This document shows positions 5,583 through 27,232 of a stretch of DNA of 64,000 nt, in pieces (within the stretch, counting starts at the first letter, position 1; each line of letters starts with the position of its first letter). Source of the stretch: Candidatus Aminicenantes bacterium. GTDB taxonomy: Bacteria; Acidobacteriota; Aminicenantia; Aminicenantales; Aminicenantaceae. Location of the stretch: NCBI GenBank assembly GCA_020348385.1, contig CP070750.1, forward strand, positions 4,264,520-4,328,519, in the 5' to 3' direction. The notes below the pieces were generated by a model. It did no database searches and was not told the origin of the DNA. It saw only the letters and a list, made by a program, of their open reading frames with translations. Position numbers and translations under genes: made by a program.

Positions 5583-5616
5583 CAAATTCCGTTTCCTTTT
5601 TTTAAATAGTATTTTT

Positions 5617-10338: not shown

Positions 10339-11039
10339 CAGATCACATAGCTTTCCAGATTCCCATTCTGGAGTTTGAACGCCTTTTCCATCAGCCGGGC
10401 AAAATCGAAGGAATGGGTCACGGTTATAAAGGCGGTCCCTTCCTCTTTATTCATTCCGACCAAAAGTCGACCGAGATTTTCAGAAGAGTCCTTGTCGAGC
10501 GAACCTGTCGGTTCATCTGCCAGGACCAGCTTGGGCTTGTTTATCAAGGCCCTGACGACAGCCACACGCTGCATCTCTCCGCCGGACAATTGCGCCGGGA
10601 AATATTCCCTGTGATTGCCAAGGCCGACTCTATCTAACAATTTTTTTGCCCTTTCCTGAACCTCACCGTCCCTGTCCCGTTTTTTCAATCCGAGCGGAAT
10701 CGTCGGGATCAACACGTTTTCCAAAACCGTGCACTGCGGGAGCAGATGATGGAGTTGAAAAATAAAACCGATCTCTTGGTTCCGGATGCGCGAGAGTTCG
10801 GTATCATCACATTCAGCAAGATTTTTCCCGAAAAGCGACACCACTCCGGAGCTGGGTTTATCAAGGGCTCCCATGATGTTCAACAGAGTGCTTTTCCCAG
10901 ATCCCGATGGTCCCACGATGGCTATGGATTCACCCGAGCTGACCTGCATCGAAATGTCTTTCAGCACGGTCGTGTAGCCCTGGCCAGACGGAATATCGTA
11001 TTTTTTGGCAATATTTTTTAGTTCAAGTAACATCTTCAT
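10338..11039 (-). CDS. ABC transporter ATP-binding protein (MacB/LolD-like)
   Basis: Walker A GPSGSGKST, signature LSGGEMQRVAVVRAL, Walker B LVLADEPTGSLD. Probable start is MKMLLELKNI at 11039; the ORF track extends it to 11240. Confidence 0.9.
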   Translation of the reverse strand: MKMLLELKNIAKKYDIPSGQGYTTVLKDISMQVSSGESIAIVGPSGSGKSTLLNIMGALDKPSSGVVSLFGKNLAECDDTELSRIRNQEIGFIFQLHHLLPQCTVLENVLIPTIPLGLKKRDRDGEVQERAKKLLDRVGLGNHREYFPAQLSGGEMQRVAVVRALINKPKLVLADEPTGSLDKDSSENLGRLLVGMNKEEGTAFITVTHSFDFARLMEKAFKLQNGNLESYVI

Positions 11040-12309
11040 AAACCCCTGCGATATTTTTTGCCATGTGATCCATGGAAAAATTCTCCAATACAACCCGCCT
11101 CCCCTGATCCCCCAGTTTTCTGATTTTATCCGGATCAGACAGGAGGGAGGCCATGGCAGAAGCGAGTTTCTCGCCTGTGTTCGGCTCATAGATAAGGCCG
11201 CCTTGGGTTTTTTCAACAAATTCTGGATAGCAGCCCACATTCGGCTGAACGACCGGAACCCCGGCCGCCAAAGCCTCCACTTGATAGGCGCCGAAGGCCT
11301 CTCCTGTGGGAACCGGGACAGAGAGCAAGGTCAATGATTTGAGAAAAGCAACCCTGCTGCTTTTGCAAAAATCATCGAATAGGATGACATCATCTTTAAA
11401 ACCGTGTTCTGCGATCTTTTTCATCTGCCCATTCAGAAAAGGCTTGTCATCGCCGGAATAACCGCCAGTCAGATGTAATTTCAGATCCCTGAATCGGTTA
11501 TCTTCTTTAAGCGCCATAAAAGCGTCAACCAGTATATCCAGTCCAAAATATTCCGACAATCGGCATAAATATCCAATGACCGGAGGATCGAACGGAAGCG
11601 TTGATTTTTCATAGCCCTCCAGATCTATCCCGCCGTGTATCACTTTAATCCGATCTCCGGGCAATTTCAGCTGCTCCTGAGTTTTATCTGCATAGTACTG
11701 GCTGGCTGAGACAAAAAAGTCCACATCAACAGCCTTTTCCGCCATCAATTTCCAGACTTTTTTTTGGTAATCTATGCCCATCAGGTCTACCCATTCGTTC
11801 TCATCCTGGAGAGAACACACCACGCCTGCTCCCAGGTCCGCCTTGAGCCTGTGGGCCAGCCCGAGCAGCAGGGCATTCGAGAGATGAACCACATCCGGAC
11901 CAACATTGTCCCGAAGGTGTTGGATGAGATGGTCGAGTTCGGATGCCTGGCGTCCCTTTTCTCCTTCCAGCATGGAGAGGGTCATCTCTTCCAGTCCGGT
12001 GGGACGCGTAGAACCGGATTTTTTGGCTGCCAAGTGAAGCAGTGACGGAGAATCGAGAAGACGTTCAATCCATACGGGAGCGCTCCTGTAAAACGGAAGT
12101 TTTTCTTTGAGATAGATGTTGACAGCACCGTAAAACACCGGGGTGACCGCAACATCGGCAGGTGTCTCCATCCCTGAAGGAAGATACATCGGGACCTTGA
12201 TCACCTTGTGCCCGAGAGATGATAAAGATTGGAGCAATGCTGTGTCGCGAAAACAATTCTGGCAGTAGAATTGCAAACCATGACCGGGGGTTACGTAGGC
12301 AATCTTCAT
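11023..12309 (-). CDS. Glycosyltransferase family 4 (GT-B fold, group 1)
   Basis: C-terminal EAFGAYQVEALAAGVPVV...E motif typical of the GT4 EX7E. N-terminus MKIAYVTPGHG. Overlaps both neighbouring genes, suggesting translational coupling. Confidence 0.75.
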   Translation of the reverse strand: MKIAYVTPGHGLQFYCQNCFRDTALLQSLSSLGHKVIKVPMYLPSGMETPADVAVTPVFYGAVNIYLKEKLPFYRSAPVWIERLLDSPSLLHLAAKKSGSTRPTGLEEMTLSMLEGEKGRQASELDHLIQHLRDNVGPDVVHLSNALLLGLAHRLKADLGAGVVCSLQDENEWVDLMGIDYQKKVWKLMAEKAVDVDFFVSASQYYADKTQEQLKLPGDRIKVIHGGIDLEGYEKSTLPFDPPVIGYLCRLSEYFGLDILVDAFMALKEDNRFRDLKLHLTGGYSGDDKPFLNGQMKKIAEHGFKDDVILFDDFCKSSRVAFLKSLTLLSVPVPTGEAFGAYQVEALAAGVPVVQPNVGCYPEFVEKTQGGLIYEPNTGEKLASAMASLLSDPDKIRKLGDQGRRVVLENFSMDHMAKNIAGVYEDVT

Positions 12310-13466
12310 GTTTTTTCTCCAAAGGCATAAATCCGTCCGTCATCGGAACCGATAACGACAAATCCCGAGTCCACAGCAGGACAGCTGAAAAGGGGGGCTC
12401 CTATCTCGTATGACCAGAGTTCTTTGCCGCTGTTTAAATCCACGATATACAATCTTCCATCCAACGACCCTACAACAACCTTTTCTCCGGCAATGACAGG
12501 CGAACTGTCGATATCATCTCGGGTTTGGAAGATCCAAATCTTTTCGCCTGTTTTGCGGTCCACACAGTGCAGAGAATCATTCCGCGACCCGATTAGAACA
12601 CGATCTTTTCCCACGGCAGGGGAAGAAAAAAAGGCATCGGGATTTTCCTTGTCAAAGTACTCCCAGTTTATCTTTTTTTCCTTCCTATCGATACAAACCA
12701 GTTTGCTGTCATAATGACCGAGATAGGCTTTGTCTCCTGCCAAGGCAGCCGAACCGGGAATGTAAGAACCGGCCCATACTTCGCCGATTTTTCTCCCATC
12801 CAAAACAGACAATATGTGTAGCAATTCGTCACAACCACCGAATAGGACATGTTCACCGTCGGTGGACGGCGCCCCATTGATATAGTTATCGGTTTCATAC
12901 GACCAATTCAGTTCTCCCGTTTCTGCATCGAAGCAGTACAGCCGATTGTCATAGCTACCGACCATAACCCAAGTTCTTTGATTTTGCGGATTTATCACCC
13001 AGTTGGCTGAACCATAAATGGAATTATCACATTTGTATTCCCATCGGACCTGTCCTGTGTTTGCATCCAAACAATAAAACTCTCCGCTCAAATTTCCCAC
13101 ATAAACAGCTTCATTCAACAGGAGAGGGGAGGCTTCGATATCATCCTTGGTATCGAACTCCCAGACTTTTTCCCCATCCGACAGGTTTAGCGCATACACT
13201 TTTCCATCGGATGAACCGCTGTAGACACGTCCCAATCCCATCACGGGGGATCCGATTATCCAGGAATCGGTCTGGAAGGACCACAGCAAACCCAGCTTTT
13301 CGGGAAGCCCATTTTTGGCTACTCCTGACAAGGCGGGATCCCCGCGAAATATGGGCCAACTCACATCTGTGATATCCACCGCTTCCTCTTGGGCTTCTTC
13401 TTTTGCACAGGAGAGGAAAAGAATGGGCAGGATCAGCAGTAAAGCCATAAATTTTCGTTTTCGCAT
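12306..13466 (-). CDS. PQQ-like beta-propeller repeat lipoprotein (paralog)
   Basis: Probable start is MRKRKFMALLLILPILFLSC (lipobox) at 13466; the ORF track gives a long upstream extension. WPIFRGDP motif and repeated blades. Confidence 0.8.
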   Translation of the reverse strand: MRKRKFMALLLILPILFLSCAKEEAQEEAVDITDVSWPIFRGDPALSGVAKNGLPEKLGLLWSFQTDSWIIGSPVMGLGRVYSGSSDGKVYALNLSDGEKVWEFDTKDDIEASPLLLNEAVYVGNLSGEFYCLDANTGQVRWEYKCDNSIYGSANWVINPQNQRTWVMVGSYDNRLYCFDAETGELNWSYETDNYINGAPSTDGEHVLFGGCDELLHILSVLDGRKIGEVWAGSYIPGSAALAGDKAYLGHYDSKLVCIDRKEKKINWEYFDKENPDAFFSSPAVGKDRVLIGSRNDSLHCVDRKTGEKIWIFQTRDDIDSSPVIAGEKVVVGSLDGRLYIVDLNSGKELWSYEIGAPLFSCPAVDSGFVVIGSDDGRIYAFGEKT

Positions 13467-13476
13467 GATAAATTCC

Positions 13477-15081
13477 TCAGCGACCGATATCCTCTCTTGT
13501 CTCCCGATCTCTCCAGGAAAGAGCACCCGTCGGACAGGCCGAGACACATGCGGCGGCTGCTTTTTCCAATCCTTGGTTGAGCGGCACACCCAATGACGGT
13601 TGGACGCGAACATCGAATCCGCGGTTAACAAAAACCAGCCCGAATTTTTCACCTGCTTTTTTCGTGATTTGCACGCATAATCCGCACTTGATACATTTCC
13701 CGGACTCATAAACGACCTTGTCATGCTGGATGTTTTTCTGGAATTTTTTCCTTTCCACGAAGGTGAAACGGCGCTGGCTGGCCTTGTATTCTTCGGCATA
13801 TTGCCGCAATTTGCATGTATCGGGTTTGCGGCAATCACAGCCGAAACAGCGCCTGGATTCGCTGACTGCTTCAGAATCTGTGTAGCCTTGGTTATTAAAA
13901 TTGGCGGGAACAATCCTCTCCTGCTCTGTCGCTTCCTTCAGGAATTCACCCGCTTCATCCTCCCGTGTTTTTCCCAGGATGGATTGAAATCTGGCAAAAG
14001 ATGCTGTAACCTCCTCGCCTTTTAAGAACTGGTTCACAGAAAACGCCAAATTTTTACCATGCGCCACGGCTCGGATGGCCATTTGCGATTCCGAAGCAGA
14101 AATCGCATTCCCACCGGCAAAATATCCCGGCACACTTGTTTGATAGGTCTTTCTGTCAATCATGATACCGCGGCGGGTAAGCTCGATGCCCGAAGATTCA
14201 AATAGATCGGGATCTGTTTTGCCGACAGCCAAGACAACCGCGTCATAAGCATTTTTCAGATCGTCCCAATTTAAATCCGTACCCAGAGATCGCTCCATTA
14301 AAAAGGCAGCCCCCATTTCAGCGATGCGATCGATTTCCTGATCCAGGACAGCCTTGGGCAAATTTTCATCGGAAACGCCATAACGGAGCATCCCACCCGG
14401 CTGCCGATTTTTGTCAAACACATCACAGGTATGCCCGAATTGGAGAATATAATAAGCGGTAGACAGGCCTGTGGGTCCGGCCCCGATGATGGCCACTTTT
14501 TTCCCTGTATTCAGAGTCATAATCGGTCGATAGGGAGACTTCTGCTCCAGATCGATATCCGCCACGTGCCTTTTCAGCAAACAGATCGATACAGGATCGT
14601 CATAAGAACCCCGGTGACAACCTTTTTCACAAGGAGCCGGGCAGATTCGACCCAAAACCGCAGGAAGGGCGATTTCTTTTTTTATGGTCTGGATCGCCTC
14701 CTCCAGCTGCCCTTCCCTGATTTGCCTTATCATAAGCGGGATGTTCATGTGGGCAGGGCAGGCACGTTGGCAGGGAGCATCACAATCGCCCACATGCTCA
14801 CTCAACAAAAAGTCCAAAGCATCCTTCCGTGCTTCCCGCACCAACTCATTTCCGGTCTCAATCCGCATTCCCTCGGAAACGACTGCCGAACATGCTGGAA
14901 GCAATTGTTCTGTGTTGGCTTCGTACACGACACAAATCATACAAGAGGTGAACCGTTCAAAACCATTCAAATAACACAGTGTGGGAATGTTTATATTCAG
15001 CTTTTTGGCCGCGTCCAGGATTGAGCCATCCACCGGAATGGCGATTTCCTGTCCGTCGATAGTTAATTTTACGTTTTTCAT
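13477..15081 (-). CDS. Iron-sulfur flavoprotein: NuoG-N-terminal-like [2Fe-2S]/[4Fe-4S] ferredoxin domain fused to a GltD/NfnB-like FAD/NAD(P)H oxidoreductase (StnA-like)
   Basis: Probable start is MKNVKLTIDGQEIAIPVDG at 15081, overlapping the upstream stop by ATGA. Cys motifs CDAPCQRACP and CPAPCEKGC. Dinucleotide-binding motif VAIIGAGPTGL. C-terminal CxxCxxC...CP clusters. Confidence 0.75.
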   Translation of the reverse strand: MKNVKLTIDGQEIAIPVDGSILDAAKKLNINIPTLCYLNGFERFTSCMICVVYEANTEQLLPACSAVVSEGMRIETGNELVREARKDALDFLLSEHVGDCDAPCQRACPAHMNIPLMIRQIREGQLEEAIQTIKKEIALPAVLGRICPAPCEKGCHRGSYDDPVSICLLKRHVADIDLEQKSPYRPIMTLNTGKKVAIIGAGPTGLSTAYYILQFGHTCDVFDKNRQPGGMLRYGVSDENLPKAVLDQEIDRIAEMGAAFLMERSLGTDLNWDDLKNAYDAVVLAVGKTDPDLFESSGIELTRRGIMIDRKTYQTSVPGYFAGGNAISASESQMAIRAVAHGKNLAFSVNQFLKGEEVTASFARFQSILGKTREDEAGEFLKEATEQERIVPANFNNQGYTDSEAVSESRRCFGCDCRKPDTCKLRQYAEEYKASQRRFTFVERKKFQKNIQHDKVVYESGKCIKCGLCVQITKKAGEKFGLVFVNRGFDVRVQPSLGVPLNQGLEKAAAACVSACPTGALSWRDRETREDIGR

Positions 15082-17438
15082 CTGATGTCCACCGATTCTG
15101 TCGGGCACACCTGCTTGCATGTCCCGCATTTGACACACTTCGTCTGATCGATTAAGTGCCGTTGGTAGGGGACTATGGCGATCGCACCGGCCGGACACTT
15201 TTGGGCACAAACGGTACAACCTATGCAGGTTTCATCGATCGTATACGTGATCAGCTCTTTGCATCGCTTGGCAGGGCAGATTCCTTTTAAATGAGCCTCG
15301 TATTCTTCCTTAAAGTAAGCCAGGGTTGTCAGGACGGGATTTGGGGCGGTTTTCCCCAGTCCACACAGACTGCCTCGTTTGGTTTTCTGGGCAATTTCTT
15401 CCAGCTTGTCAAGGTCTTCCTGTTTTCCTTTTCCGGCACACAGATCCTCCAGAATCTGCAGCATGTGCCGTGTGCCTATCCGACAAAAGGTGCATTTCCC
15501 GCAGGATTGGTTTTGCGTGAACGATAAAAAATACCGGGCGATGTCCACCATGCAGTCGGAATCATCCATCACCAACAAGCCACCCGAACCCATCATGGCA
15601 CCCGCATTGGTCAGGTCTTCGTAATCGACTCTGGTGTGGGCCATTTCGGCAGGAATGCAGCCGCCGGACGGCCCTCCGATTTGGACAGCCTTGAACGGTT
15701 TATCATTTTCGATGCCACCACCGATGTCCTGGACGATCTCTTGTATCGTGATGCCCATCGGAACCTCGATAAGCCCACCACGGGCAATTTTCCCCGCCAA
15801 GGAAAAAACTTTGGTTCCCTTGCTTTGGATTGTTCCCATCCGGGCAAATGCGTCCGCCCCATTCCGGATGATCCAGGGTACCGTGGCAAACGTCTCACAA
15901 TTGCTGACCAAGGTGGAATGGCCCCAGAGTCCTTTTTGGGCCGGATAGGGAGGCCTGAAACGGGGGTTCCCCCGTTTTCCTTCCAGGGAAGCAATCAGGG
16001 CCGTTTCTTCCCCGCAGACAAAGGCACCGGCTCCCTCAAGGATGTGCAACTCAAGCGAATATCCTCCCCCCATGATATTTTCCCTCAAAAGCCCGCATTC
16101 CCTGCATTGCCTCAGCGCATCTTTCACCCGCTGGACGGCGAGGGGATACTCCGCACGAATGTAAAAATATCCCTCACAGGCTCCCACCGTGTAGGCCGAA
16201 ATGATCATGCCCTCGATGACCCGAAACGGGTAGGATTCCAGGATCATCCTGTCCATGAATGCACCCGGGTCCCCTTCATCTCCGTTGCAGATGATGTATT
16301 TCGTATCATCTTGGGATTGCTGGACCACTTCCCACTTCTGCCCCGAGGAGAAACCAGCGCCTCCCCTTCCTCGCAGTCCGCTCGATTTGATTTGGCCGAG
16401 CACTGCTCCTGGAGAAGATTTGGTTAGACATAGTTCTAAGGCTTCAAATCCTCCTTTGGAGCGGTATTCTTCGAGATCGAGGGGATCGATCTGGCCGGAA
16501 TGTTCTGTGGCGATGTGTTTCTGTCTACCCAAAAAAGCTTGGATACTCGGATCCCGCATATGAAGGGGGTGGCGTGTAAATCCGTTGGCACGTGGGTCCT
16601 CGAGAATATTTTCAATAAATTGATATGCCGCAATTTTGATACGCTGGCTCAAGGATTTTGGTTTATAGTGTTTAAGAAGGATGTCCCGTACATCTTCCGG
16701 CTTTACGCTGTCATACAAAACAGGATCTTTTTCTGGAATATTCACTTCCAGAAGCGGTGTCCGGTGGCACATCCCCACACACCCGACCCTCTTGACCTGG
16801 GTGCTAATCCCCGTTTGTGCCAGTGACTTTTCCAGAGCCTGCTGCACACGTTGGCTTCCGCTGGCCACACAGCAGGAGCCCAACCCGATCTTGATTTCCC
16901 CAACTTTTTCAGTAGGGATTTTTAGATCACGAGCAGATTCCTCACTTCCGGCCGAGTGCCGAAGAAAATCCTGGATAATAGGGGCAACGCCATCTGTTTT
17001 CACATGTCCGTATGTCACATTGTCGATTTGAACGACTGGGGCGATGGTGCAGCAGCCAAGACATGCGATTTTTTGAACGGTGAATAAAAAATCTGGGTCT
17101 GTGTCTTGGCCATGTTCGATGTGCAGCTCGCGACAGAAAGCATCGTACACAAGCTCAGATCCTTTGACATGGCAAGCCGTGCCCGTACAAATCCGGATAA
17201 TGTGTTTCCCGATCGGGGTGTGCCGGAACTGAGAAAAAAAGGTCGACACACCTGTTATCGCGGCGGGTGTTATCTCGGTGACTTCACACACCCTCCGGAG
17301 GGCCTCCTCTGGAAGATAGTTATATTTTTTCTGAATGGCATGCAGGATCGGGATGACATCACCGGGTTTTGTGCCGATTTTTTCGACTACATTCTCGACA
17401 AAAGAAAGGATGCTGTCCGTCTCCGTCTCTTGTTTCAT
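15078..17438 (-). CDS. Fused NuoE-like (thioredoxin-like 2Fe-2S) and NuoF-like (FMN/NADH, 4Fe-4S) flavoprotein with C-terminal 2x[4Fe-4S] ferredoxin (HydB/HndC/StnB-like)
   Basis: NuoE-like Cys pattern ICTGTACHVKG...CLGCC. NuoF-like GAGAFVCGEETALIASLEG and glycine-rich FMN/NADH motifs. C-terminal CIGCTVCAQKCP...CVKCGTCKQVCP. Confidence 0.85.
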   Translation of the reverse strand: MKQETETDSILSFVENVVEKIGTKPGDVIPILHAIQKKYNYLPEEALRRVCEVTEITPAAITGVSTFFSQFRHTPIGKHIIRICTGTACHVKGSELVYDAFCRELHIEHGQDTDPDFLFTVQKIACLGCCTIAPVVQIDNVTYGHVKTDGVAPIIQDFLRHSAGSEESARDLKIPTEKVGEIKIGLGSCCVASGSQRVQQALEKSLAQTGISTQVKRVGCVGMCHRTPLLEVNIPEKDPVLYDSVKPEDVRDILLKHYKPKSLSQRIKIAAYQFIENILEDPRANGFTRHPLHMRDPSIQAFLGRQKHIATEHSGQIDPLDLEEYRSKGGFEALELCLTKSSPGAVLGQIKSSGLRGRGGAGFSSGQKWEVVQQSQDDTKYIICNGDEGDPGAFMDRMILESYPFRVIEGMIISAYTVGACEGYFYIRAEYPLAVQRVKDALRQCRECGLLRENIMGGGYSLELHILEGAGAFVCGEETALIASLEGKRGNPRFRPPYPAQKGLWGHSTLVSNCETFATVPWIIRNGADAFARMGTIQSKGTKVFSLAGKIARGGLIEVPMGITIQEIVQDIGGGIENDKPFKAVQIGGPSGGCIPAEMAHTRVDYEDLTNAGAMMGSGGLLVMDDSDCMVDIARYFLSFTQNQSCGKCTFCRIGTRHMLQILEDLCAGKGKQEDLDKLEEIAQKTKRGSLCGLGKTAPNPVLTTLAYFKEEYEAHLKGICPAKRCKELITYTIDETCIGCTVCAQKCPAGAIAIVPYQRHLIDQTKCVKCGTCKQVCPTESVDIR

Positions 17439-17445: not shown

Positions 17446-19161
17446 CTATTTCCCTATGCAGTACAAATTTTTTGTTCCCCGGATGTATATCCGATTATGC
17501 ATGAAGGCAGGGATGCTCACCGCCGTTTCACCCAGTTCGTTCCGGCTTATCAGTTCGTATTTCTTATCCGCTTTAAAAATATACATAGTCCCCGACATAT
17601 CCATCAGATACACCAAGTCTCCGACAAGGATGGGAGAGGAATAGAATCCCTCATCGAACTCCTCGATCCACATCCTCTCTCCGGTCTTGTTGTCAAAACA
17701 TGTCACAGTGCCATAACTGGCAGCCATGAATAATAAGTTTTTGGAAGCCAGAGGACTGGATACTTCAGATAGATCGTCGATGTATTCCCACACCAGCTCC
17801 ACGCTCTCTCCTAATTTTATGCCAGCTAGGCGGGCATAGTCGTTGACCGCAAACACCATGCCGTCGGCATAGGCGGGAGAGGGGGCGATTTCCCCCAGCA
17901 TGCATTTCACCCGCCACAACTCCTGCCCTGTTCGGGGATCGTGAGACATCACGAACGGGTTGGAATTGAGGATGATCTCCTCTCTTTTTCCCGTGTTTAC
18001 CAAAATGGGCGATGCCCACGAAATCTCCACTTCCCTCGGTTGATCATATACGATATCCCCTGATTGGGCTCTCAAGGCGAGCAAACGCCCTCCCGTGTTC
18101 TGGTCGTACTGGACCAGCAGCAGATCTTGATAGGTGATCAACGACGACGAGTGCCCGTAATGATTTTCCGGCACGCCTAGGTTTTTGGCCCAGATGCGAT
18201 TCCCCTCTAAATCGAGACAAGCCATATCTCCCGTGGCAAAAAGAGCAAAAATTCGGGTACCATCGGTTGTCATCGTGGGGGCGGCAAAACCTGTATCCTC
18301 GGTAACCTGGGGGCGTCTTTCGGGAGAGCCTGGAATGTCATTCAATTCCATCTGCCAGAGAATCTCTCCCGAGTCGGCATCGATGCAGTACACAACTTGT
18401 GTCCTTCTGTCCGCACCCGAGAGGAAAATCTTTTTTTCCCATATGATCGGGGAATTATAACCGGGATGAGGAATCGGAATTTTCCAAAGGATGTTCAAAC
18501 CTGAGGGGCCGTCCCATTCGGTAGGTACATCCGTATGATAGGCCCAACCAATTCCCTCCGGGCCGCGGAAACCGGGCCAGTTATTCCTTATTTCCTGAAT
18601 GCTGGTATAGTCTGGAACACCCTGTCTTTTTCCCGGTTGAAAAATGCCTATCTTTTTAAGCTCAGTCTGGGATATCACCCCGAAAACCAAGGCCAGCAGC
18701 ACTATTCCCAGTCCACCGTAAAGGATATATTTTCGGGATAAAAGCCTATTCTCCCGAGTCTTTTCCGGGTCGGGACTTTTGGTTAAATCGGGCAACCTGG
18801 GTTCGAGCGAACTCATGTATTTCAGAGCCAGAAGACAAACGAGCACAAACGCGAACAGAAGGTAACTCCCTGTTCGGATCTGCCATTGATGGGTGAAATA
18901 CGCTTTTCTGGCCAGCAAATCGAGAGCCCGGATCTGCTCTATCAAAACCGTGTCTTCCGGATTCTCTCGGAGCTTTGTCATCAGTTGAGAAATGGCCTGG
19001 CTGTTGAGCGGATCAACCGACTTCGTCTGGATGTAATTGGCGATCATCAGAATACTGAGAATTCCCGCCAACACAGCGCAGACAACGGCGATCCTTTTGG
19101 CGATTTTGTACCAAAGCTCTGTCCTGTTTTTTCTGTTATTTTCGATAGGTTGTTTTTCCAT
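17446..19161 (-). CDS. Membrane-anchored PQQ-like beta-propeller repeat protein (paralog with ~190-aa N-terminal region containing TM segments)
   Basis: Hydrophobic segments IAVVCAVLAGILSILMIANYI, LLFAFVLVCLLAL and ILYGGLGIVLLALVFGVI precede a WPGFRGP motif and the propeller blades. Start is most likely MEKQPIENN at 19161, giving a 4-nt gap to the upstream stop; the alternative at 19194 would overlap. Confidence 0.75.
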   Translation of the reverse strand: MEKQPIENNRKNRTELWYKIAKRIAVVCAVLAGILSILMIANYIQTKSVDPLNSQAISQLMTKLRENPEDTVLIEQIRALDLLARKAYFTHQWQIRTGSYLLFAFVLVCLLALKYMSSLEPRLPDLTKSPDPEKTRENRLLSRKYILYGGLGIVLLALVFGVISQTELKKIGIFQPGKRQGVPDYTSIQEIRNNWPGFRGPEGIGWAYHTDVPTEWDGPSGLNILWKIPIPHPGYNSPIIWEKKIFLSGADRRTQVVYCIDADSGEILWQMELNDIPGSPERRPQVTEDTGFAAPTMTTDGTRIFALFATGDMACLDLEGNRIWAKNLGVPENHYGHSSSLITYQDLLLVQYDQNTGGRLLALRAQSGDIVYDQPREVEISWASPILVNTGKREEIILNSNPFVMSHDPRTGQELWRVKCMLGEIAPSPAYADGMVFAVNDYARLAGIKLGESVELVWEYIDDLSEVSSPLASKNLLFMAASYGTVTCFDNKTGERMWIEEFDEGFYSSPILVGDLVYLMDMSGTMYIFKADKKYELISRNELGETAVSIPAFMHNRIYIRGTKNLYCIGK

Positions 19162-19165
19162 GATA

Positions 19166-20512
19166 CTAAGCCCTGAACTGTTTGATTCGAACATCCCGTC
19201 TATCCAATTCCTTGAGTTCCTCTGGCGTCATCAGTCCCAATCGAACTTGCTCATAGGGACAGTAGGCAAAGCAGCGTCCACAGCTGAGGCATGTCCCTTT
19301 GTCCACATCATACTCCAACTGCCTCCGCCGGATAAAAAGGCCGATAAGTTTCAAGCAAAGGATCAAACCGATAAAACCGCCCAATATCCAGCCTCCCCTA
19401 CGGAATTGGCTTTGGATGACACTCGCTTCTGCAAATAACTCTTCCGATGGTTTTCCCGTAGCACGGAAGGCTTTTGTCGCATCGGTCATCTCCGTTCTTT
19501 TTCCCGCATTTTCCAGAAGCACCTCTTCAGCCAAAGATACGGTGGGATGCAGACGGGACAGAGAAACATCCAATCGTGATCCGATCCAGCCAAAACCGAT
19601 GACAACAACAGGAAGGAGGACAAGTAGGGCCGCCACCTGTTTGACATCTCCCTCTCTTTTCATGGGCTGTGTTTCATCATCCGCCTTTTTTATGGCTCCG
19701 AACGGACAGGATTCCTCGCACAACCGGCAGTTGTTGCACTCATCCGGTGTGATCCTGACGTGACGCCTGGAAAGACGTGACATCCAGTTCAAAAGCACTC
19801 CATACGGGCAAAGATAACGGCAGTAGGGACGAGCGACGACTGTTCCCAGCAAGAGCATGGAGAAACCAAAGATGACCATGTTGAAATCTGCCCCAAAACG
19901 GAAAAATCCGATGAAAGGATCGTACTGGCATATGATAAAACCCGCGCCTGTTGCGGCAAACAAGACAGCAAGGCCCAAATAGACATACGGAAAAACACCC
20001 AAGAGGGCAGCCAACCATTCCGGCACGTTGATCGGATTCAGGACGACAGCATCCTGAATGGCCCCGAGAGGACAAACGGCAGCACAGAATGTGCGGCCGA
20101 AAAACAAGGCAAAAACTAAGGGAAGAATAAAAAATAGGACGACAGACAAAGGAATAATGTAGGCTGGGTTGAAAAAAGCGTAGCTGACATTCTGCACAGC
20201 TCCGACAGAACAGACACATCCCTTCCTGTAAAACCCGAAATAGGCAAGAGCAAACACCATCAAAAGGAAGATGTTCCGACGGGAGCGCTGATTGTGAGCG
20301 AAATACGTCGCTAAAGAAAGGGCCGCAACCAAGACGAATATATCCATGTATTCCCATACAGCAGCTCGCGGTGCCGGTGTGAGCAGATCGGGCCGCACAT
20401 AACCCGATTCAAAATCGGGCTTGGGAAAGCGCTCCTGAACTTGGGAGAAGACAAATACAGGACAGAGGAGCACCAGAGCCACAACAAAAATCTTCAACCG
20501 TTTCAATTTCAC
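19166..20512 (-). CDS. NapH/MauN/NosR-family membrane-bound 4Fe-4S ferredoxin-type protein
   Basis: Multiple TM helices. CAAVCPLGA and CRYLCPYG motifs are typical of the NapH/MauN family. C-terminal ferredoxin motifs CNNCRLCEESCP and CLSCGRCFAYCP. Confidence 0.75.
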   Translation of the reverse strand: MKLKRLKIFVVALVLLCPVFVFSQVQERFPKPDFESGYVRPDLLTPAPRAAVWEYMDIFVLVAALSLATYFAHNQRSRRNIFLLMVFALAYFGFYRKGCVCSVGAVQNVSYAFFNPAYIIPLSVVLFFILPLVFALFFGRTFCAAVCPLGAIQDAVVLNPINVPEWLAALLGVFPYVYLGLAVLFAATGAGFIICQYDPFIGFFRFGADFNMVIFGFSMLLLGTVVARPYCRYLCPYGVLLNWMSRLSRRHVRITPDECNNCRLCEESCPFGAIKKADDETQPMKREGDVKQVAALLVLLPVVVIGFGWIGSRLDVSLSRLHPTVSLAEEVLLENAGKRTEMTDATKAFRATGKPSEELFAEASVIQSQFRRGGWILGGFIGLILCLKLIGLFIRRRQLEYDVDKGTCLSCGRCFAYCPYEQVRLGLMTPEELKELDRRDVRIKQFRA

Positions 20513-21096
20513 CCTTCCCGAAATTTTCCGCTCTCATCTCCCCTGAGGATGTAGGGCTGGCTGGCTGGCACCCGTTTCCAAGCCCGGGAGGGACACCTCC
20601 TGGCGATCGAGCACTGATTGCAATTCAAACATCGGTCATGCCGAGCCTGCAGGTACAAAGACCCGTTCCCGAACGAATTGCAGCCTTTCACGCATTTGCC
20701 GCACCCAACACACAATTTCTCATCGATCGTGTATTCAAAATAAGGATCTTCGATGTATGTCCGCTTGATCGCCCCGGAGGGACAGAGCTGGCTTTCCGCT
20801 CCTGTGTCTCTGGATTTGGCCCCGGGCTGAAGATAACCGCTGCACAGGTCGCAATAACCGCACATCGAATAGGAATGAACACATTTCACAGCCGAGTGGG
20901 GCAAAACACAGTTGACCGCGCATTTTTCACACTGGATACAGATGTTGGGATCCAACTGCCAGACCGTCTCTTCGGCTGAAGACTTACGGGACAGGATTCC
21001 TGCCAATCCTCCGACCGTCAGACCCACAATCACATGGAGACTTTTCCTCACAAAATCTCGGCGTTTAACCGGATTTGTTTTCGTTTTTCCCGTCAT
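20509..21096 (-). CDS. Tat-exported 4Fe-4S ferredoxin-type protein (NapG/MauM-like)
   Basis: Twin-arginine motif RRDFVRKSLHVIVGLTVGGLAG. Four CxxCxxC(xx)CP-type clusters (CIQCEKCAVNC, CGYCDLC, CVGCGKCVKGC, CLNCNQC). Overlaps its neighbours by 4 nt. Confidence 0.75.
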   Translation of the reverse strand: MTGKTKTNPVKRRDFVRKSLHVIVGLTVGGLAGILSRKSSAEETVWQLDPNICIQCEKCAVNCVLPHSAVKCVHSYSMCGYCDLCSGYLQPGAKSRDTGAESQLCPSGAIKRTYIEDPYFEYTIDEKLCVGCGKCVKGCNSFGNGSLYLQARHDRCLNCNQCSIARRCPSRAWKRVPASQPYILRGDESGKFREG

Positions 21097-21344
21097 TTCC
21101 GGCCTCTATATTCCTGCTTTGTTTCCCTGGCTTTGCGCTGCCGACAACCGGGAAGCTTCGAACAAATCCTGCAGGGTAAATCGATGACACAGGACGTTTT
21201 TTTCCCTGAGACCTTCCTCCAAGCAAGAGACAAACCCCCAAACGCCAGCCCGCTCAACAAAACCATCCGCACTCCATCCTTCAAAAACTCTCGCCTGTTT
21301 TTTTTCCTATGCTTCTCCTGCATCGTGAAACTCTCCTGCTTCAT
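21093..21344 (-). CDS. Small Tat-signal protein with a C-terminal Cys cluster (hypothetical)
   Basis: RREFLKDG twin-arginine motif plus a hydrophobic helix, then CVIDLPCRICSKLPGC and a basic tail. ATGA overlap with both flanking genes. 83 aa, so coding status is uncertain. Confidence 0.45.
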   Translation of the reverse strand: MKQESFTMQEKHRKKNRREFLKDGVRMVLLSGLAFGGLSLAWRKVSGKKTSCVIDLPCRICSKLPGCRQRKARETKQEYRGRK

Positions 21345-22330
21345 GATTTTTTCTTTGCAAAGATCCTCACTCGCTTTTGAAGCGGATCTAAAACATAGAT
21401 TTTTTGTGTGGAATCGACAGCCAGATCCAGGCCGACCGTGCCCTCCAGAAATTGTTCTGTCGGGGCAACAACGGAAACAAGATTTCCGAGGCGGTTGTAG
21501 ATCTTGATTCTAGGGAGGCCCTTTTCGCTGGTCACAAAGGAACCGTCCACCAACAGGGTAAAGTGGGATGGATTGCAGCACCCGCTGAATCCCTGGATCT
21601 CCATCCCGAACTCACCCCATGATGTCCGGAAATTTCCATCGACGGTATAATTCTCGAGGGAATGGCGCCCGGTGTTGGCGACCCAGAGAAATCCGTCCGC
21701 ATCGATAGCCACGTCGAAATAGGGGCTAGGGATGATGAATCCCGGAATATCTTTGGTTTCGTTTTTATCTCCGATCCTTTGAAGATTCAATCCGGATTTA
21801 TCGAACTTCCAGACAATTTTATTCCCAGCATCAGCGACAAAAACACTTTTTGCTGAGACCGCAATCGATGTGATGATGGCTTTTTCACCCAGAGATTCCC
21901 AACCAGCTTGTCTTATGCCTTTCTGATCGTAAACCTCGACATGATCTCCCATCCCGAGATACAAATCATGGTTTTTGTCGATAGCCAAACAGCGGATCGG
22001 CCCACTTGATTTAAAAGAAGATCGCGGTGTCCCATCGTTGTCGAAGACAAGTACAGAACCGTTGCCGGACACATAAATCCTATCGTCCGGCCCGACGGCA
22101 ATTCCGGAAACCTTCGGCAAATCGATGGGAATGTGTCCCACCTCGGAGTAATGAACCAAATCGGCGCCGCTCTCTGCATAGCTTTGGATATCGTAGGCAA
22201 AAGGATTCTGTTGATCATTTTTTCCATGGCCTCGAACAGCTCTGTATCCGAAGTAGAAGATGCCCGTCAAAGAAACCGCTAAAATCGCACTGGTTAAAAT
22301 TTTTTCTTTTTTCAAATTAAATATACCCAT
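21341..22330 (-). CDS. NHL-repeat beta-propeller protein, N-terminally membrane-anchored
   Basis: N-terminal TM segment ILTSAILAVSLTGIFYF. Repeated D-x-x-G-x-hydrophobic-Y/W-V-hydrophobic-D blades (DRIYVSGNGSVLVFD, HDLYLGMGDHVEVYD, SVFVADAGNKIVWKFD, FLWVANTG) typical of NHL/six-bladed propellers. Confidence 0.7.
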   Translation of the reverse strand: MGIFNLKKEKILTSAILAVSLTGIFYFGYRAVRGHGKNDQQNPFAYDIQSYAESGADLVHYSEVGHIPIDLPKVSGIAVGPDDRIYVSGNGSVLVFDNDGTPRSSFKSSGPIRCLAIDKNHDLYLGMGDHVEVYDQKGIRQAGWESLGEKAIITSIAVSAKSVFVADAGNKIVWKFDKSGLNLQRIGDKNETKDIPGFIIPSPYFDVAIDADGFLWVANTGRHSLENYTVDGNFRTSWGEFGMEIQGFSGCCNPSHFTLLVDGSFVTSEKGLPRIKIYNRLGNLVSVVAPTEQFLEGTVGLDLAVDSTQKIYVLDPLQKRVRIFAKKKS

Positions 22331-22344: not shown

Positions 22345-23778
22345 TTATGGATTGACCCTCAGATCGATACAGACCAATCGGCGCGAATCCCGCGCGAGCA
22401 ACCGGCCCTCAACAAAAGCCAACGGCCCCCAAGCATCCACTCCTTCGAGAATTTTGACCTGAGCCAGTTGAACGTATTCCCTTGCACTGGCTCTGGCTAT
22501 AGTTAAAACTCCATCATCGCTGAGTATGAAAAACTTATCATCTGCCACGATATAAGGGCCCAGCCCGAATCGATTCGTCTTTCCGCTGGACCAGATAAAT
22601 CGACTGATGTCATCCGGATGGCAGCACACGAATTGATTGCGCAGCGGTCCGGCATCCTTGGGCAATATGCAAAAAAGATGACCCGAGAAGAATATCGGTG
22701 TTTGTTGCTCGGACGCCATTCCTTCCTCCGGTTTTATCGTTTGGATGGCTTCCACCGAAAAAACACCGGCTTCCTCCTTAATTCTGACCATCGAGCTGCC
22801 CGACCCGTATCCGGCCGTCAGAAAGATTCTCCTATCTCCCAGATAAACGGGAGATGGCGCGATGACATTGTGGTTCCACAAACGGGATTCAAACAATATC
22901 TTGCCCGCTTCCTCCCCATCTGCGGCAACACCAACAATCCCTCCGATAGCGCAGTACACATACATCTTTATGCCGTTTATGACAAAAGGCATGACGGAAG
23001 AATGGGACATTTTCCAGTTGTTGGGATTGGGCGTTTCCCACACCACCTCACCGGTTTCACAATCGACAGCAATGATCAGCGATTTCCCCCCAACAGCAAA
23101 CACGGCCAGGGTGTCATCGATCAGAGGGCACTGCCCGGTGTACCAAAGGGGCACCTCGGTTCCATAGTCTTTTCCCAAATCGATGCCCCATTTGAGATCT
23201 CCGGTGACTGCATCCACACACATGACATGACATTTAGGCCCGATGGTCACAACATACTTTTCTGTTGCCGCTGGAACAGTCCGAGACATCCCATGATTCC
23301 GTTTCACGAAAAGGTCATACCCCCTCCGCCAAATCTCAGCTCCATTATCCAAAGAAAAACAACGCAAAACATCCGCCCTCTGCTCTTCATCGTAATCCAG
23401 AAGATAGACCCGTCCGTTCGAAACGACTGGACCGGCATGACCCTCCCCTAAATCTATGGACCAGAGAATATCTGGCCCTGCATCGTCCCATCTGTCGATA
23501 AGTTGGATGTTTTCCTTGCTGATGTTATCAAAATCGGCTCCCCGGAATCTCGGCCAGCTCCCACGGATTGCGGAGGGGATTCCCTCGAAACTTTCGAAAT
23601 GGGCACCGATTTCCACAGCATCGCTAGCGCTGACAAATCCAAGAGGTCGGTTGTCCATCCCGGGAAGGCTTTCTGCAAAATCCTTGACCGGATTGTACAG
23701 GAGCCACCAAGTCAGAAAAACCAGCCCGAGAAAGGCTGTTCCGAGAATAGTGACACGGTTTACTAATTTCTCATTCAT
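22345..23778 (-). CDS. Membrane-anchored PQQ-like beta-propeller repeat protein (paralog)
   Basis: Probable start is MNEKLVNRVTILGTAFLGLVFLTWWLL (TM anchor) at 23778, preceded by GGTGA. WPRFRGADF motif and blades. Confidence 0.8.
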   Translation of the reverse strand: MNEKLVNRVTILGTAFLGLVFLTWWLLYNPVKDFAESLPGMDNRPLGFVSASDAVEIGAHFESFEGIPSAIRGSWPRFRGADFDNISKENIQLIDRWDDAGPDILWSIDLGEGHAGPVVSNGRVYLLDYDEEQRADVLRCFSLDNGAEIWRRGYDLFVKRNHGMSRTVPAATEKYVVTIGPKCHVMCVDAVTGDLKWGIDLGKDYGTEVPLWYTGQCPLIDDTLAVFAVGGKSLIIAVDCETGEVVWETPNPNNWKMSHSSVMPFVINGIKMYVYCAIGGIVGVAADGEEAGKILFESRLWNHNVIAPSPVYLGDRRIFLTAGYGSGSSMVRIKEEAGVFSVEAIQTIKPEEGMASEQQTPIFFSGHLFCILPKDAGPLRNQFVCCHPDDISRFIWSSGKTNRFGLGPYIVADDKFFILSDDGVLTIARASAREYVQLAQVKILEGVDAWGPLAFVEGRLLARDSRRLVCIDLRVNP

Positions 23779-24994
23779 CACCGATATGATAGACCATAAG
23801 CGCATCGCCGTGCCGGATGTAAAGACGCCCGTCCTTGATAACGGGATGGGCCCAGTGTTCACCAGAGCCTTTTTTCACCCGAAAAGAACTCACCAGATGA
23901 AACTCCTCAGGATTGGGTTTGACCAAACCTACATACCCGTTTTCACTGTAGCAAAACATCATTCCATCGGCAAAAATGATCGCCCCTTTATTCCCAATTT
24001 TTCTTGCCGTGTACTGGACTTTTCCGGTTTTCCAGTCCAGGCAATGCCATCCTCGATTATTATGGCCCGAGCCGTAAATATAGCCGTCGACTAAAATCGC
24101 GGCTCCCATCTGACTGTCAAGCTTTCTTTGCGACCAGACCCGCTTGACACTCGCTCCGTCTTCGGAGAGCTGGAACATCTGACCGCCGGTACCATATCCG
24201 CTCACCGTATACACAAAACCGTTATGATAGAGGGGTGTGTTCGCATTAACTGTATAATCCGTGACATGGGATTGGCGCCACAGATAGTCTCCTGTATCGG
24301 CATCGATGCCGACGAAGGAGCTGCCCGTCATGGTTAAAAGCAGGCGTCTTTTGCCGTGTTTGACAAGACAGGGAGAACAGTATCCTGATGATTCTCCGTC
24401 TGCTTTAATCTCCCAGATCGTTTTCCCGGAATGCCTGTCCAATGCAACGATCGTGACTTTCCGACCTCCAGGGGTGCAAAAAACCCGATCCCCATCCACA
24501 AGAAGGGACTCCGTCATTCCCCACTGCAAATTCCGTGCTCCGAATTGTGCCATCAGATCGACCGACCATATCTTCTTGCCATCCGTGCTAAAACAGACAG
24601 CTTGTCCCTTGGCGCTCATCAAGTAGATCCTGTCGCCGACAACGGTGGGAGTGGTCCGGGCACCGGGTCGACTTCCATTCCATTCCGGGCCGTAGGAGGC
24701 TTTCCAGACAGTTTTCCCATTTCTATCGAAGGAAAACAAAAACCCTTCGCCGCCGGTCATCCCGGTCAGATAAACACGATCCGCTGTCACGGCCGGAGAA
24801 GAATAGCCCTCCCCAAGACCCTCCACAGACCATATTAGCGCAGGCCCTACCTCCGGCCATGCCTTCAATAGATTCTCGCCGGGATAAACACCATCCCGGT
24901 TGGGCCCCCGCCACTGGGATTCTATCTGCCCTAAGGCTATAGAACATCCCAACCCAATAAACAACAAGGTGGTCACCACAAAGATTTTTTTCAT
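23771..24994 (-). CDS. PQQ-like beta-propeller repeat protein, secreted (paralog)
   Basis: Signal peptide MKKIFVVTTLLFIGLGCSIALGQ. QWRGPNRDGVYPG motif. Blades such as YSSPAVTADRVYL. Confidence 0.8.
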   Translation of the reverse strand: MKKIFVVTTLLFIGLGCSIALGQIESQWRGPNRDGVYPGENLLKAWPEVGPALIWSVEGLGEGYSSPAVTADRVYLTGMTGGEGFLFSFDRNGKTVWKASYGPEWNGSRPGARTTPTVVGDRIYLMSAKGQAVCFSTDGKKIWSVDLMAQFGARNLQWGMTESLLVDGDRVFCTPGGRKVTIVALDRHSGKTIWEIKADGESSGYCSPCLVKHGKRRLLLTMTGSSFVGIDADTGDYLWRQSHVTDYTVNANTPLYHNGFVYTVSGYGTGGQMFQLSEDGASVKRVWSQRKLDSQMGAAILVDGYIYGSGHNNRGWHCLDWKTGKVQYTARKIGNKGAIIFADGMMFCYSENGYVGLVKPNPEEFHLVSSFRVKKGSGEHWAHPVIKDGRLYIRHGDALMVYHIGDE

Positions 24995-25157: not shown

Positions 25158-26519
25158 CTATTTTTCAGAGATGGCCATGAGATGATGATGGGTTCGGATA
25201 TACAAGGTTCCCTCAGATATGGCAGGTGTCGCCATGCATTTATCCTTCATCGGATTGGTTGCCAAGACTTCGAATTCAGGTCCCGCTTTGATGACAAAAA
25301 CATCTCCCTCTTCACTGGCAAAATAAAGTTTTCCATCTGCTGCCACACCGGAGGCTGAAAAACCTGTCATTTTCCCCAGCTGTTCTTTGTATACCACTTC
25401 ACCTGTTTTTGCGTTGTAGCAAGTCAGGGCTCCGTTCCACTGCAAATTGTAAAGAAAATCGCCGTAAATGAGAGGTGTCAGCATATATGAGCCTCCTCGC
25501 CTGACGCTCCAGACAATGGAATCGTTGGAAGTATTGTCTTCCTTCAAGGATATGTCTCCCTCTGACTCCAGTTTTATTGCATAGATAGGAGACAAGCGTC
25601 CGTGAGCACTGTTGATGAACACCATACCATGGGCAACCACAGGTGTGGGAACCGGGATATCCCCTCCCCCGGATATTTCCCATATTTCTTTTCCCGTTTT
25701 AAAATCATAACCACCCATGTGTTTGAATCCGTTTACGATGATCTGCGTTTGTTTTTCTCCCACATGAACGGTCGGTGTGCTCCAAGTGGGAACATCCTCA
25801 CGGGCAGTCCGCCAAATTTCCTTCCCGGTTTTAATGTCCAAGGCAGCAAGGAAGGCAGTGTTGAGAGCATCGCATTGGACGATGACAACGCCCTGGTGGA
25901 TAACCGGAGAACTGGCAAACTCCCATTGGGCCGACGGCACCATAAAAAAGGCCGCATCGAGAAGACCGAAGTCTTTTTTCCAGATCAATTTGCCGTCCAT
26001 ATTGTAACAATAGAGGCCTTCAGAGCCGAAAAAAGCAACCACGTATTTCCCGTCTGTGGAGGGTGTTGAATTGGCATGGGTTGCCTTGGGATGACGTTTA
26101 ACTTTGGGAACACCCTTGTGCGCTGTTTTTTCCCACATTATTTTTCCGGTTTTTTTATCCAAGCAGTACACTTTCCATTCGTGCACAGAGTCATCATCGA
26201 CGGGTTCGATACTTCCATACAGCCCCACTTTGAGCTCCGCATCAGCTTCGCCAGTTGCCGTTGTGACAAACATGCGATCTCCCCAAATAACAGGACTGGA
26301 ATGAGCCAATCCGGGCAGCTTGATTTTCCAATTAATGTTCTTGGGTGTATCTACATCCCAGGATACAGGTGTAGCATATCTATCGGCAATACCACTGGCG
26401 TTTGGCCCACGGAAACTGGGCCAGTTTTCCCCATCAGTCGTATTCTGGCCTTGCAGTACGATTAACGTTCCGAATAAAATCACCGTACTCAGTAAAATCC
26501 TACTTGAATTTCTTAACAC
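25158..26519 (-). CDS. PQQ-like beta-propeller repeat protein, secreted (paralog of 2420..3835)
   Basis: Signal peptide. WPSFRGPNASGIA motif. Co-linear and ~55-60% identical to the + strand ORF at 2420..3835. Confidence 0.85.
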   Translation of the reverse strand: MLRNSSRILLSTVILFGTLIVLQGQNTTDGENWPSFRGPNASGIADRYATPVSWDVDTPKNINWKIKLPGLAHSSPVIWGDRMFVTTATGEADAELKVGLYGSIEPVDDDSVHEWKVYCLDKKTGKIMWEKTAHKGVPKVKRHPKATHANSTPSTDGKYVVAFFGSEGLYCYNMDGKLIWKKDFGLLDAAFFMVPSAQWEFASSPVIHQGVVIVQCDALNTAFLAALDIKTGKEIWRTAREDVPTWSTPTVHVGEKQTQIIVNGFKHMGGYDFKTGKEIWEISGGGDIPVPTPVVAHGMVFINSAHGRLSPIYAIKLESEGDISLKEDNTSNDSIVWSVRRGGSYMLTPLIYGDFLYNLQWNGALTCYNAKTGEVVYKEQLGKMTGFSASGVAADGKLYFASEEGDVFVIKAGPEFEVLATNPMKDKCMATPAISEGTLYIRTHHHLMAISEK

Positions 26520-27138: not shown

Positions 27139-27232
27139 AAATCGTCAAAATCTTCTCTTTCCCCAAATTGACTGCCCTCATGAGTTGTGGCATACGCAGG
27201 GTACCAATCCATAATTGCTGAAGGAGAAGAGG

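Follow-up and report, generated by a model that had tools for sequence, protein, structure and literature searches.

NapH-like proteins are modular units of transmembrane electron transfer, which operate also together with β-propeller enzymes such as NirS and ExaA (PMC8238504). A module of four transmembrane (TM) helices and two CX3CP motifs is common to the NapH-type proteins, and NapH makes contact with a cytoplasmic iron-sulfur (Fe-S) protein, NapF (PMC5928378). In the systems described by Méheust et al. 2021, NapH-like units serve NosZ, reductive dehalogenases, NirS or ExaA, and are always accompanied by a domain binding flavin mononucleotide (FMN) that is flavinylated by ApbE (PMC8238504). 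The Nfn-Bfu enzymes (NfnABC/StnABC) use NADH, NADPH and ferredoxin as substrates (PMC9304861, PMC11829005, PMC12018979); ferredoxin and NAD(H) are interaction partners of their Bfu cores (PMC9304861, PMC11829005), and the only membrane-linked Bfu types in PMC9304861 are the Mbh- and Nuo-linked ones. Here we describe a gene cluster with relatives of both kinds of proteins in a stretch of 64,000 nucleotides (nt) from Candidatus Aminicenantes bacterium (contig CP070750.1, positions 4,264,520 to 4,328,519), which is called the window below. Four genes on its minus strand at 19166-22330, encoding an NHL-type β-propeller, a small Cys protein, a ferredoxin and a NapH-like polytopic protein, seem to be the centre of a conserved and apparently undescribed system of about 12 genes in anaerobic sediment bacteria. 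With a probability of roughly 0.5, this system would be a heme-free Fe-S conduit for propellers in the periplasm, connected with NAD(P)H instead of with quinol only. Literature searches found no paper describing the cluster, and nothing on MauM/MauN either.

The four genes had been called as open reading frames (ORFs) in a previous reading of the window from its letters (the sequence-only reading), and all four are confirmed at these coordinates; at each junction among them the stop and start codons overlap by 4 nt. They belong to a string of genes, tightly packed or overlapping, that runs from 26519 down to at least 7045, and all the genes of the string given below lie on the minus strand. 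This string is syntenic throughout in 14 loci from Aminicenantes genomes, close relatives of the window. Wider context was obtained with a profile search built from distant members of the NapH-like family and with a metagenome scan. The former reached proteins named in their source as Planctomycetes, Sedimentisphaerales and KSB1, which make up the named homologues together with those of Aminicenantes, and a common gene set was found in 5 contexts from this search and in 80 metagenome loci, whose NapH-like proteins have 44-54% identity to P0242, the first sequence of the A2 query alignment.

Co-occurrence was counted over the loci with enough flank, namely testable loci. In 68 of 69 such loci the NapH-like gene is immediately preceded by the ferredoxin gene, and in at least 57 of 60 it is immediately followed by the gene for Pd, a propeller with three TM helices. 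The NHL gene is present in 49 of 50, the gene for Pc, a TM-anchored propeller further upstream, in 36 of 41, a fusion gene for BfuC-BfuB (NuoE-NuoF-like) in 35-36 of 38 from several phyla, and the gene for BfuA (2Fe-2S/GltD-like) in 31 of 36. The order propeller-NHL-small protein-ferredoxin-NapH-like-propeller is preserved across phyla; among lineages the order of the blocks is permuted and the gene content is retained. The search of other genomes for NapGH-like pairs beside β-propeller genes, which the sequence-only reading had proposed, is answered by finds in several phyla. A search for recurrent families in the flanks of the loci brought nothing further except more propellers.

The NapH-family polytopic Fe-S protein of 448 amino acids (aa) is encoded at 19166..20512 and was assigned through Pfam, topology and alignment with NapH. 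Fer4_5 of Pfam matches it twice, at CAAVCPLGA (C143/C147) and at CRYLCPYG (C231/C235), and two CxxCxxCxxxCP motifs are found at residues 259-270 and 408-419; these ferredoxin half-motifs are 149 aa apart with a TM hairpin between them. Hydropathy and the AlphaFold model (mean predicted local distance difference test, pLDDT, 78.6) give a signal peptide and seven TM helices. The N-terminus is predicted to be outside and the C-terminus inside, with both CX3CP motifs and both ferredoxin half-motifs on the cytoplasmic side and with GC99xC101xxG and C195, which hold three invariant Cys, on the periplasmic face. No solved structure in the PDB resembles this protein by sequence or by fold. The protein has 429 relatives (50%-identity clusters) at E<1e-30, far more than chance would give, most of them full-length with 36-57% identity, and it belongs to a large subfamily of its own with its own signature. 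The signature begins with the signal peptide and a conserved periplasmic segment, RFPxPxFESGY. Among the 139 representatives of at least 400 aa, GCxCxxG is found in 136, both CX3CP motifs in all 139, with C143/C147-P and C231/C235-P invariant, and half-motifs split by at least 100 residues including the TM hairpin in 133.

The ferredoxin of 195 aa (20509..21096) is identified as a periplasmic protein exported by the twin-arginine translocation (Tat) pathway from its RRDFV motif at residues 12-16, its 17 Cys, arranged in four groups plus one, and its collinearity with NapG. The twin arginine, the Phe and all 17 Cys are each at least 93% conserved among 65 homologues, in agreement with the four Cys clusters noticed before, and these Cys would be enough for four [4Fe-4S] sites with one extra Cys.

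The sequence-only reading regarded the polytopic protein and this ferredoxin as a hallmark NapGH/MauMN pair. Remote homology stands but family membership does not. Against the NapH/MauN models TIGR02163 and NF007013 the NapH-like protein scores 45.7 bits (cut-off 213) and 46.6 bits (cut-off 234), respectively, and the ferredoxin scores 16.5 bits against the NapG model NF007012, with a cut-off of 269. The identity to Escherichia coli NapH is 26% and confined to residues 120-285, a region that spans TM3, a CX3CP motif, TM4, TM5, the second CX3CP motif and the first ferredoxin motif; the probability by hhalign is 93%. The ferredoxin is collinear with E. coli NapG over residues 12-195 at 23% identity, Tat signal included. 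From these comparisons the two proteins are best regarded as remote homologues of NapH and NapG and not as members. The module of four TM helices with two CX3CP motifs is the same as in NapH/MauN, and so are the twin-arginine signal and the four Cys groups (4x[4Fe-4S]) of NapG. However, the adjacent C-terminal 4Fe-4S motifs and the cytoplasmic N-terminus of NapH/MauN are absent, and so are the napA/napB/napC, nos or mau genes as partners. The same holds for other subfamilies with which alignment had been suggested. The protein reaches only 38.8 bits with the NosR/NirI model NF046105 (cut-off 1000), contains no FMN_bind domain and no FixG_C domain by Pfam, and has no CcoG model among the best 25 of its 53 NCBIfam hits. 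Neither an FMN-binding domain nor an ApbE gene, by which a flavinylated NapH-like system would be recognized, is found in the cluster.

The absence of a terminal reductase with the pair is borne out: genes for NapA, NapB, NapC, NosZ, Nir or another terminal reductase and the nos/mau structural genes are found neither in the conserved cluster of the window nor in 98 related loci. No cluster protein has a CxxCH motif for cytochrome c, and Pfam scans and the recurrent-family search across loci show no molybdoenzyme, FMN-binding gene or ApbE conserved in the cluster.

The small protein with an RR signal (83 aa, 21093..21344) has the features noticed before, namely NRREFLK and a hydrophobic stretch followed by C-x5-C-x2-C-x5-C. 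It has no match in Pfam or NCBIfam, and is found in nearly all related loci across phyla, as a separate ORF in most. In two loci, L032 and L058, it makes up the N-terminal part of a fusion protein with the ferredoxin and stands in for the signal of the latter. Because of these fusions, the protein is likelier to be a subunit of the ferredoxin than a separate carrier of a Cys-bound cofactor, as had been proposed; it probably provides the periplasmic ferredoxin with a further metal or Fe-S subunit. In several lineages (among L021-L096, e.g. L043, L067, L081 and L092), its twin arginine is changed to RK, RE, RV, RA or RY and the neighbouring ferredoxin keeps RR; the small protein without RR may be exported together with the ferredoxin by hitch-hiking, or may have an uncleaved anchor. 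Its mature part comprises about 35-50 residues with no conserved Trp or Tyr. A light subunit with tryptophan tryptophylquinone (TTQ) or cysteine tryptophylquinone (CTQ) was considered and rejected, since no Trp is conserved and TTQ needs two.

Fusions also define the next partner. In 10 of 149 family representatives, the NapH-like protein is fused to Pd to give proteins of about 1000 aa, whose C-terminal half aligns with the entire Pd of the window, its TM region as well (E 1e-75 to 1e-134). These fusions are topologically coherent, joining a predicted cytoplasmic C-terminus to a predicted cytoplasmic N-terminus. Pd itself (582 aa, 17446..19194) has three TM helices and a PQQ_2/BamB-like propeller, and fusions and synteny point to it as a physical partner of the NapH-like protein. 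That the NapH-like protein, Pd, the ferredoxin and the small protein are in one complex is best supported by the two sorts of gene fusion, and the components of the system, their conservation and their physical association can be taken as settled. That unrelated genes are neighbours by chance in this genome is effectively refuted by the same fusions and by a content that is conserved in 98 loci of several phyla despite the permuted order.

Just beyond the four genes, and 7 nt after the Pd gene, begins a conserved pair of genes for cytoplasmic flavo-iron-sulfur proteins; in some related loci it overlaps or abuts Pd. The first (786 aa, 15078..17438) is a fusion of BfuC and BfuB (HydC/HydB, NuoE/NuoF-like), recognized through Pfam and a PDB search. 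It is composed of a NuoE/HydC domain, a further 2Fe-2S domain, a NuoF domain with FMN/NADH and [4Fe-4S] sites, and a C-terminal 2x[4Fe-4S] domain, and its Pfam matches are 2Fe-2S_thioredx, Complex1_51K, NADH_4Fe-4S and Fer4 in this order. Residues 179-785, which take in the N-terminal 2Fe-2S and the C-terminal ferredoxin domains, match NfnB (9n5u_B) with 704 bits, and HydB gives 609-625 bits, as compared with about 340-355 bits over residues 310-719 for NuoF of complex I; the cytoplasmic pair is by these scores of the Bfu type and not of the complex I type. The second protein, BfuA of the Nfn type (534 aa, 13477..15081, start 15081), was recognized in the same way. It has a NuoG-like 2Fe-2S domain, a GltD/NfnB-like domain for flavin adenine dinucleotide (FAD) and NADPH and a C-terminal Fe-S domain, with Fer2_4, Fer4_20 and Pyr_redox_2 in Pfam, and it matches the N-terminal half of NfnA (9n5u_A, E 3e-95); the FAD/NADPH domain matches also GltD and the large subunits of NfnI. 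The domain architectures expected of BfuB plus BfuC and of BfuA in Nfn-Bfu enzymes are both present, and the two proteins together appear to be an Nfn-Bfu-type module for NADH and NADPH in the cytoplasm.

The window encodes also a classical NfnAB-type transhydrogenase, a single chain of 767 aa at 52950-55253 (-) with an NfnA-like part (NAD_binding_1, DHODB Fe-S) and an NfnB/GltD-like part (Fer4_20, Pyr_redox_2). Because of this enzyme the Bfu module of the cluster is less likely to be a housekeeping transhydrogenase, although this is a weak argument.

The Bfu pair bears directly on the label of quinol dehydrogenase that the sequence-only reading gave to the locus. In a model of this kind, a module of NapGH/MauMN type would pass electrons from menaquinol through the periplasmic ferredoxin to the propellers, and the Bfu genes would be mere neighbours. 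The membrane module of four TM helices with two CX3CP motifs is homologous to that of NapH, where it has been proposed as the quinol-oxidizing part (PMC5928378, PMC8238504). However, besides the scores far below the NapH/NapG cut-offs, the Bfu pair is adjacent in the great majority of testable loci across phyla (35-36 of 38), with close or overlapping starts and stops, and a simple quinol route leaves the cytoplasmic ferredoxin domain without a role. The label is doubtful and probably wrong, and a quinol dehydrogenase is an unlikely explanation of the cluster.

On the periplasmic side, the NHL protein (329 aa, 21341..22330) is a type-II membrane-anchored six-bladed propeller, as judged by its N-terminal TM helix and its fold model. 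G-C251-C252-N-P and T267xEKG are at least 93% conserved in a wider set of loci from several phyla, whose proteins have 30-75% identity to that of the window. The loop bearing C251/C252 is modelled with low confidence, as would be expected if it makes contact with a partner or ligand. The model is otherwise that of a generic six-bladed propeller: the fold search gave only generic NHL propellers (TRIM2, Thin and PknD), and a PDB search centred on the GCCNP motif gave nothing specific. A vicinal Cys pair beside an Fe-S subunit recalls disulfide/dithiol chemistry driven by a chain of clusters, which is by analogy a guess of low confidence.

The flanking propellers, which had been described as related to proteins binding pyrroloquinoline quinone (PQQ), are indeed PQQ_2 (BamB-like) propellers. 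Pc (22345..23862, probable start 23778) is TM-anchored according to Pfam and conservation, and is the best conserved propeller, with many invariant polar residues (K187, H190-G-x-S-R-T, Q244-C-P and H287). The paralogues Pb (23771..24994), with a signal peptide and a possible lipobox LGC, and Pa (25158..26519), the first gene of the string, are exported. In many related loci, one to three extra propeller copies are found upstream of Pc. Conservation in Pb and Pd is limited to structural Gly, Trp and Tyr. Including Pe described below and further paralogues at 2384-3835 (+), 4245-5714 (-) and 5617-6981 (-), the window has eight PQQ_2/BamB-like paralogues within 24 kb (2384-26519), which suggests an expandable set of periplasmic partners. 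The fusions of the NapH-like protein with Pd and the order kept across phyla uphold the earlier proposal that the propellers are its periplasmic partners, but no known redox cofactor is seen in them: family models, conservation and the structure search give no sign of PQQ or of another one. The nearest solved structure to Pd is BamB (E 8e-8), quinoprotein ethanol dehydrogenase reaching only E 4e-4, and with the PQQ-dehydrogenase model TIGR03075, which has a cut-off of 480, five propellers of the string score 14.6-36 bits and Pe 88.7.

These data weigh on the direction of electron flow. A periplasmic substrate could instead be oxidized at the propellers, and the electrons could move inward and, in concert with those of NADH, reduce NADP+ (confurcation), or just reduce NAD(P)+. 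Bfu enzymes can run in both directions (PMC9304861), NapH-like proteins occur with periplasmic oxidases including the propeller enzyme ExaA (PMC8238504), and the propellers do fall in the PQQ_2 superfamily. However, they are BamB-like, at 35 bits against the PQQ-dehydrogenase cut-off of 480, no candidate cofactor is visible, and inward transfer opposes the membrane potential, so that a very low-potential donor would be needed. Reverse flow is therefore improbable, even more so than the quinol route.

Starting from the observed gene content, fusions, conservation, topology signals and homologies, we infer an NAD(P)H-linked conduit as follows, including the physical coupling of the Bfu enzyme to it, which way the electrons flow, how many clusters of which kind there are and where the chain ends. 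In the cytoplasm, electrons would be supplied by the Bfu-type flavo-iron-sulfur enzyme with its NADH and NADPH sites. Nfn-Bfu enzymes use ferredoxin and an NfnAB-type enzyme is encoded elsewhere in the window, and for these reasons we propose that ferredoxin is replaced as the third Bfu partner by the cytoplasmic ferredoxin domain of the NapH-like protein, as synteny suggests. Electrons would most likely flow outward from NAD(P)H, possibly via the low-potential branch of a bifurcation, to the NapH-like protein. The latter, the Tat ferredoxin and the small 4-Cys subunit would make up a heme-free and flavin-free conduit across the cytoplasmic membrane, attached on the outside to the membrane-anchored Pd, Pc and NHL proteins and perhaps to the further exported paralogues. 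From the NapH-like protein, electrons would pass to the periplasmic ferredoxin and its small subunit and finally to a site on the propellers. By analogy with Fe-S-driven thiol/disulfide chemistry, Cys251-Cys252 of the NHL protein would be the best candidate for a redox-active end point.

Several points weigh against such a conduit. First, recognizable redox cofactor sites are present, as far as the sequences tell, only in the ferredoxins of the cluster, the conservation in Pb and Pd is merely structural, and the nearest solved relative, BamB, is a scaffold. Second, the two Cys of the NHL protein alone cannot hold a cluster, and the loop that bears them is one of low model confidence. Third, a membrane of about 25-30 Å would have to be crossed without heme, which is a puzzle for the whole NapH family, and in NosR no iron in excess of two [4Fe-4S] clusters was found that could be ascribed to the CX3CP motifs (PMC5928378). 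Fourth, synteny cannot separate docking of the Bfu enzyme to the membrane protein from shared regulation; the Bfu genes are absent beside the core in 2-3 of 38 loci (L076 and L087), and the coupling to Bfu may not be obligatory. Finally, the GT4 and ABC/FtsX block described below has no explained role in the scheme. A more specific form of the conduit is Fe-S-only export of electrons at about the level of ferredoxin, in which the Bfu enzyme would use the membrane ferredoxin domain as its low-potential acceptor and would drive periplasmic reduction at Cys-based propeller reductases without conventional cofactors. This form is speculative and rather unlikely as it stands, if somewhat less so than quinol oxidation. 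If true, it would mean an unrecognized extracytoplasmic redox metabolism that is widespread in anaerobic sediment phyla (Aminicenantes, Planctomycetota and KSB1).

Downstream of BfuA, the string continues with an accessory block. Its first gene encodes Pe (12306..13466), a PQQ_2 propeller with a signal peptide and a likely lipoprotein Cys (LSC), and precedes the glycosyltransferase gene in 12 of 14 loci. It is followed by a glycosyltransferase of family GT4 (11023..12309), an ATPase of the ATP-binding cassette (ABC) class of LolD/MacB type (10338..11240, probable start 11039 or 11033), and a double-FtsX permease of the MacB/Lol superfamily (1097 aa, 7045..10338), which is conserved in L015, L017-L019 and many metagenome loci. 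Relative to the core, the Pe-GT4-ABC-FtsX block is downstream in the window and in KSB1, and upstream in loci of the Planctomycete type. This linkage of the block, GT4 included, to the core in two arrangements speaks for a machine of maturation or maintenance, comparable to NosR with NosZ or CcoG with cbb3 oxidase, that delivers reductant to the propeller complex or to an envelope product made by GT4/ABC; for example, the Cys-Cys pair of the NHL protein could be kept reduced, or oxidative damage could be repaired in anaerobes. BamB-like propellers are scaffolds, NosR has been proposed to act in activation (PMC5928378), and the cluster is adjoined by peroxiredoxin-type or other redox genes in L015 and L019 and by a hemerythrin gene in the window. 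However, the peroxiredoxin and hemerythrin neighbours are not conserved, and a dedicated enzyme of bifurcating type together with five metal sites in the periplasm would be costly for a task of maintenance. We regard this explanation as improbable to the same degree as reverse flow.

Several other genes lie around the cluster. The hemerythrin gene (26716-27138, +) is divergent from the first cluster gene and is conserved only in L002. At 28119-30712 (+), likewise divergent from the cluster, lie genes for a CoxS-like 2Fe-2S subunit and for the large subunit of a molybdenum hydroxylase (PaoC/XdhA-like) with a DRREFLK signal. The Tat-signal hydroxylase (28526-30712) was considered as the missing reductase and was rejected, being adjacent only in the closest relative, L002. 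In two loci without Bfu genes beside the core, the Pd gene is followed by an AbiEi/AbiEii toxin-antitoxin pair (L087, 4201-5807) or by a NifU gene (L076, 8846-9853). A protein of 696 aa encoded at 57090-59180 (-) has a domain like the large subunit of [FeFe]-hydrogenase and Fe-S motifs fused to HisKA/HATPase, and may be a histidine kinase sensing hydrogen or redox state. Two further genes have no evident link to the cluster: one at 89-2356 (+) for a protein of 755 aa with glutamine amidotransferase and GXGXG (glutamate synthase C-terminal) domains, and one at 30713-33124 (-) for a second MacB/FtsX-type permease of 803 aa. The G+C content is 0.42-0.44 at 26001-28000 and 32001-36000, as compared with about 0.49-0.51 within the cluster.

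Among the described systems, NapGH of E. coli and Wolinella is alike in that it combines a Tat ferredoxin of four clusters and a polytopic protein that bears cytoplasmic 4Fe-4S motifs and two CX3CP motifs, and the sequences are collinear. Unlike NapH, the NapH-like protein of the window has in addition a signal peptide, an extra TM helix, GCxCxxG and half-motifs split by the TM hairpin; E. coli NapH has neither GCxCxxG nor split half-motifs, and its motifs are 34 aa apart. Moreover, the ferredoxin has 17 Cys instead of 16, and the partners are propellers and the Bfu module instead of NapA, NapB and NapC. In the mau cluster for methylamine dehydrogenase, MauM/MauN are encoded with MauB, the heavy subunit and a propeller, and with MauA, the light subunit, which is small, exported and rich in Cys. 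Similarly, the NapGH-like pair of the window adjoins a β-propeller protein and a small exported Cys-rich protein, although the latter cannot form TTQ, genes for MauG, MauD and MauE are absent, and the propellers are BamB-like or NHL. Of the proteins with solved structures, BamB comes closest to the PQQ_2 propellers, although with only weak similarity (E 8e-8); the differences are the inner-membrane anchors of Pd and Pc and, in some lineages, the fusion of Pd to a redox protein.

The NapH-like extracytosolic systems, including NosR and PceC/RdhC (PMC8238504), share with the present one the use of modular transmembrane Fe-S modules for periplasmic enzymes, some of which are β-propellers. Unlike them, this cluster has no FMN-binding domain or ApbE and instead has a Tat ferredoxin with a small Cys subunit. 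The resemblance to Nfn-Bfu (NfnABC/StnABC) comprises the complete BfuB architecture, BfuC as an N-terminal fusion, and the 2Fe-2S and FAD/NADPH domains of BfuA. In contrast to those enzymes, the module shares an operon with membrane and periplasmic proteins, B and C form a single chain, and BfuA has 534 aa instead of 963 aa; for no Bfu enzyme has a ferredoxin partner been described that is part of a membrane protein, as proposed here. If true, this would be the first link of a Bfu-type bifurcating enzyme to a membrane polyferredoxin, and the PQQ-like/BamB-like propellers, which are very abundant in Planctomycetes, Acidobacteriota and candidate phyla, would gain a function.

The NapH family is a widespread and structurally unsolved route of transmembrane electron transfer, and the present system is a natural variant of it without a heme, flavin or molybdenum partner. 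With invariant Cys on both predicted faces and fusions that define the neighbours, it is a good target of cryo-electron microscopy for Fe-S-only transfer across a membrane. It differs from the described NapH-type systems in the lack of a flavin domain, the extra Cys on the outer face, the link to Bfu and the propellers of no known cofactor as its only periplasmic partners. Taken together, these differences depict a NapH-type conduit with unprecedented partners on both sides of the membrane.

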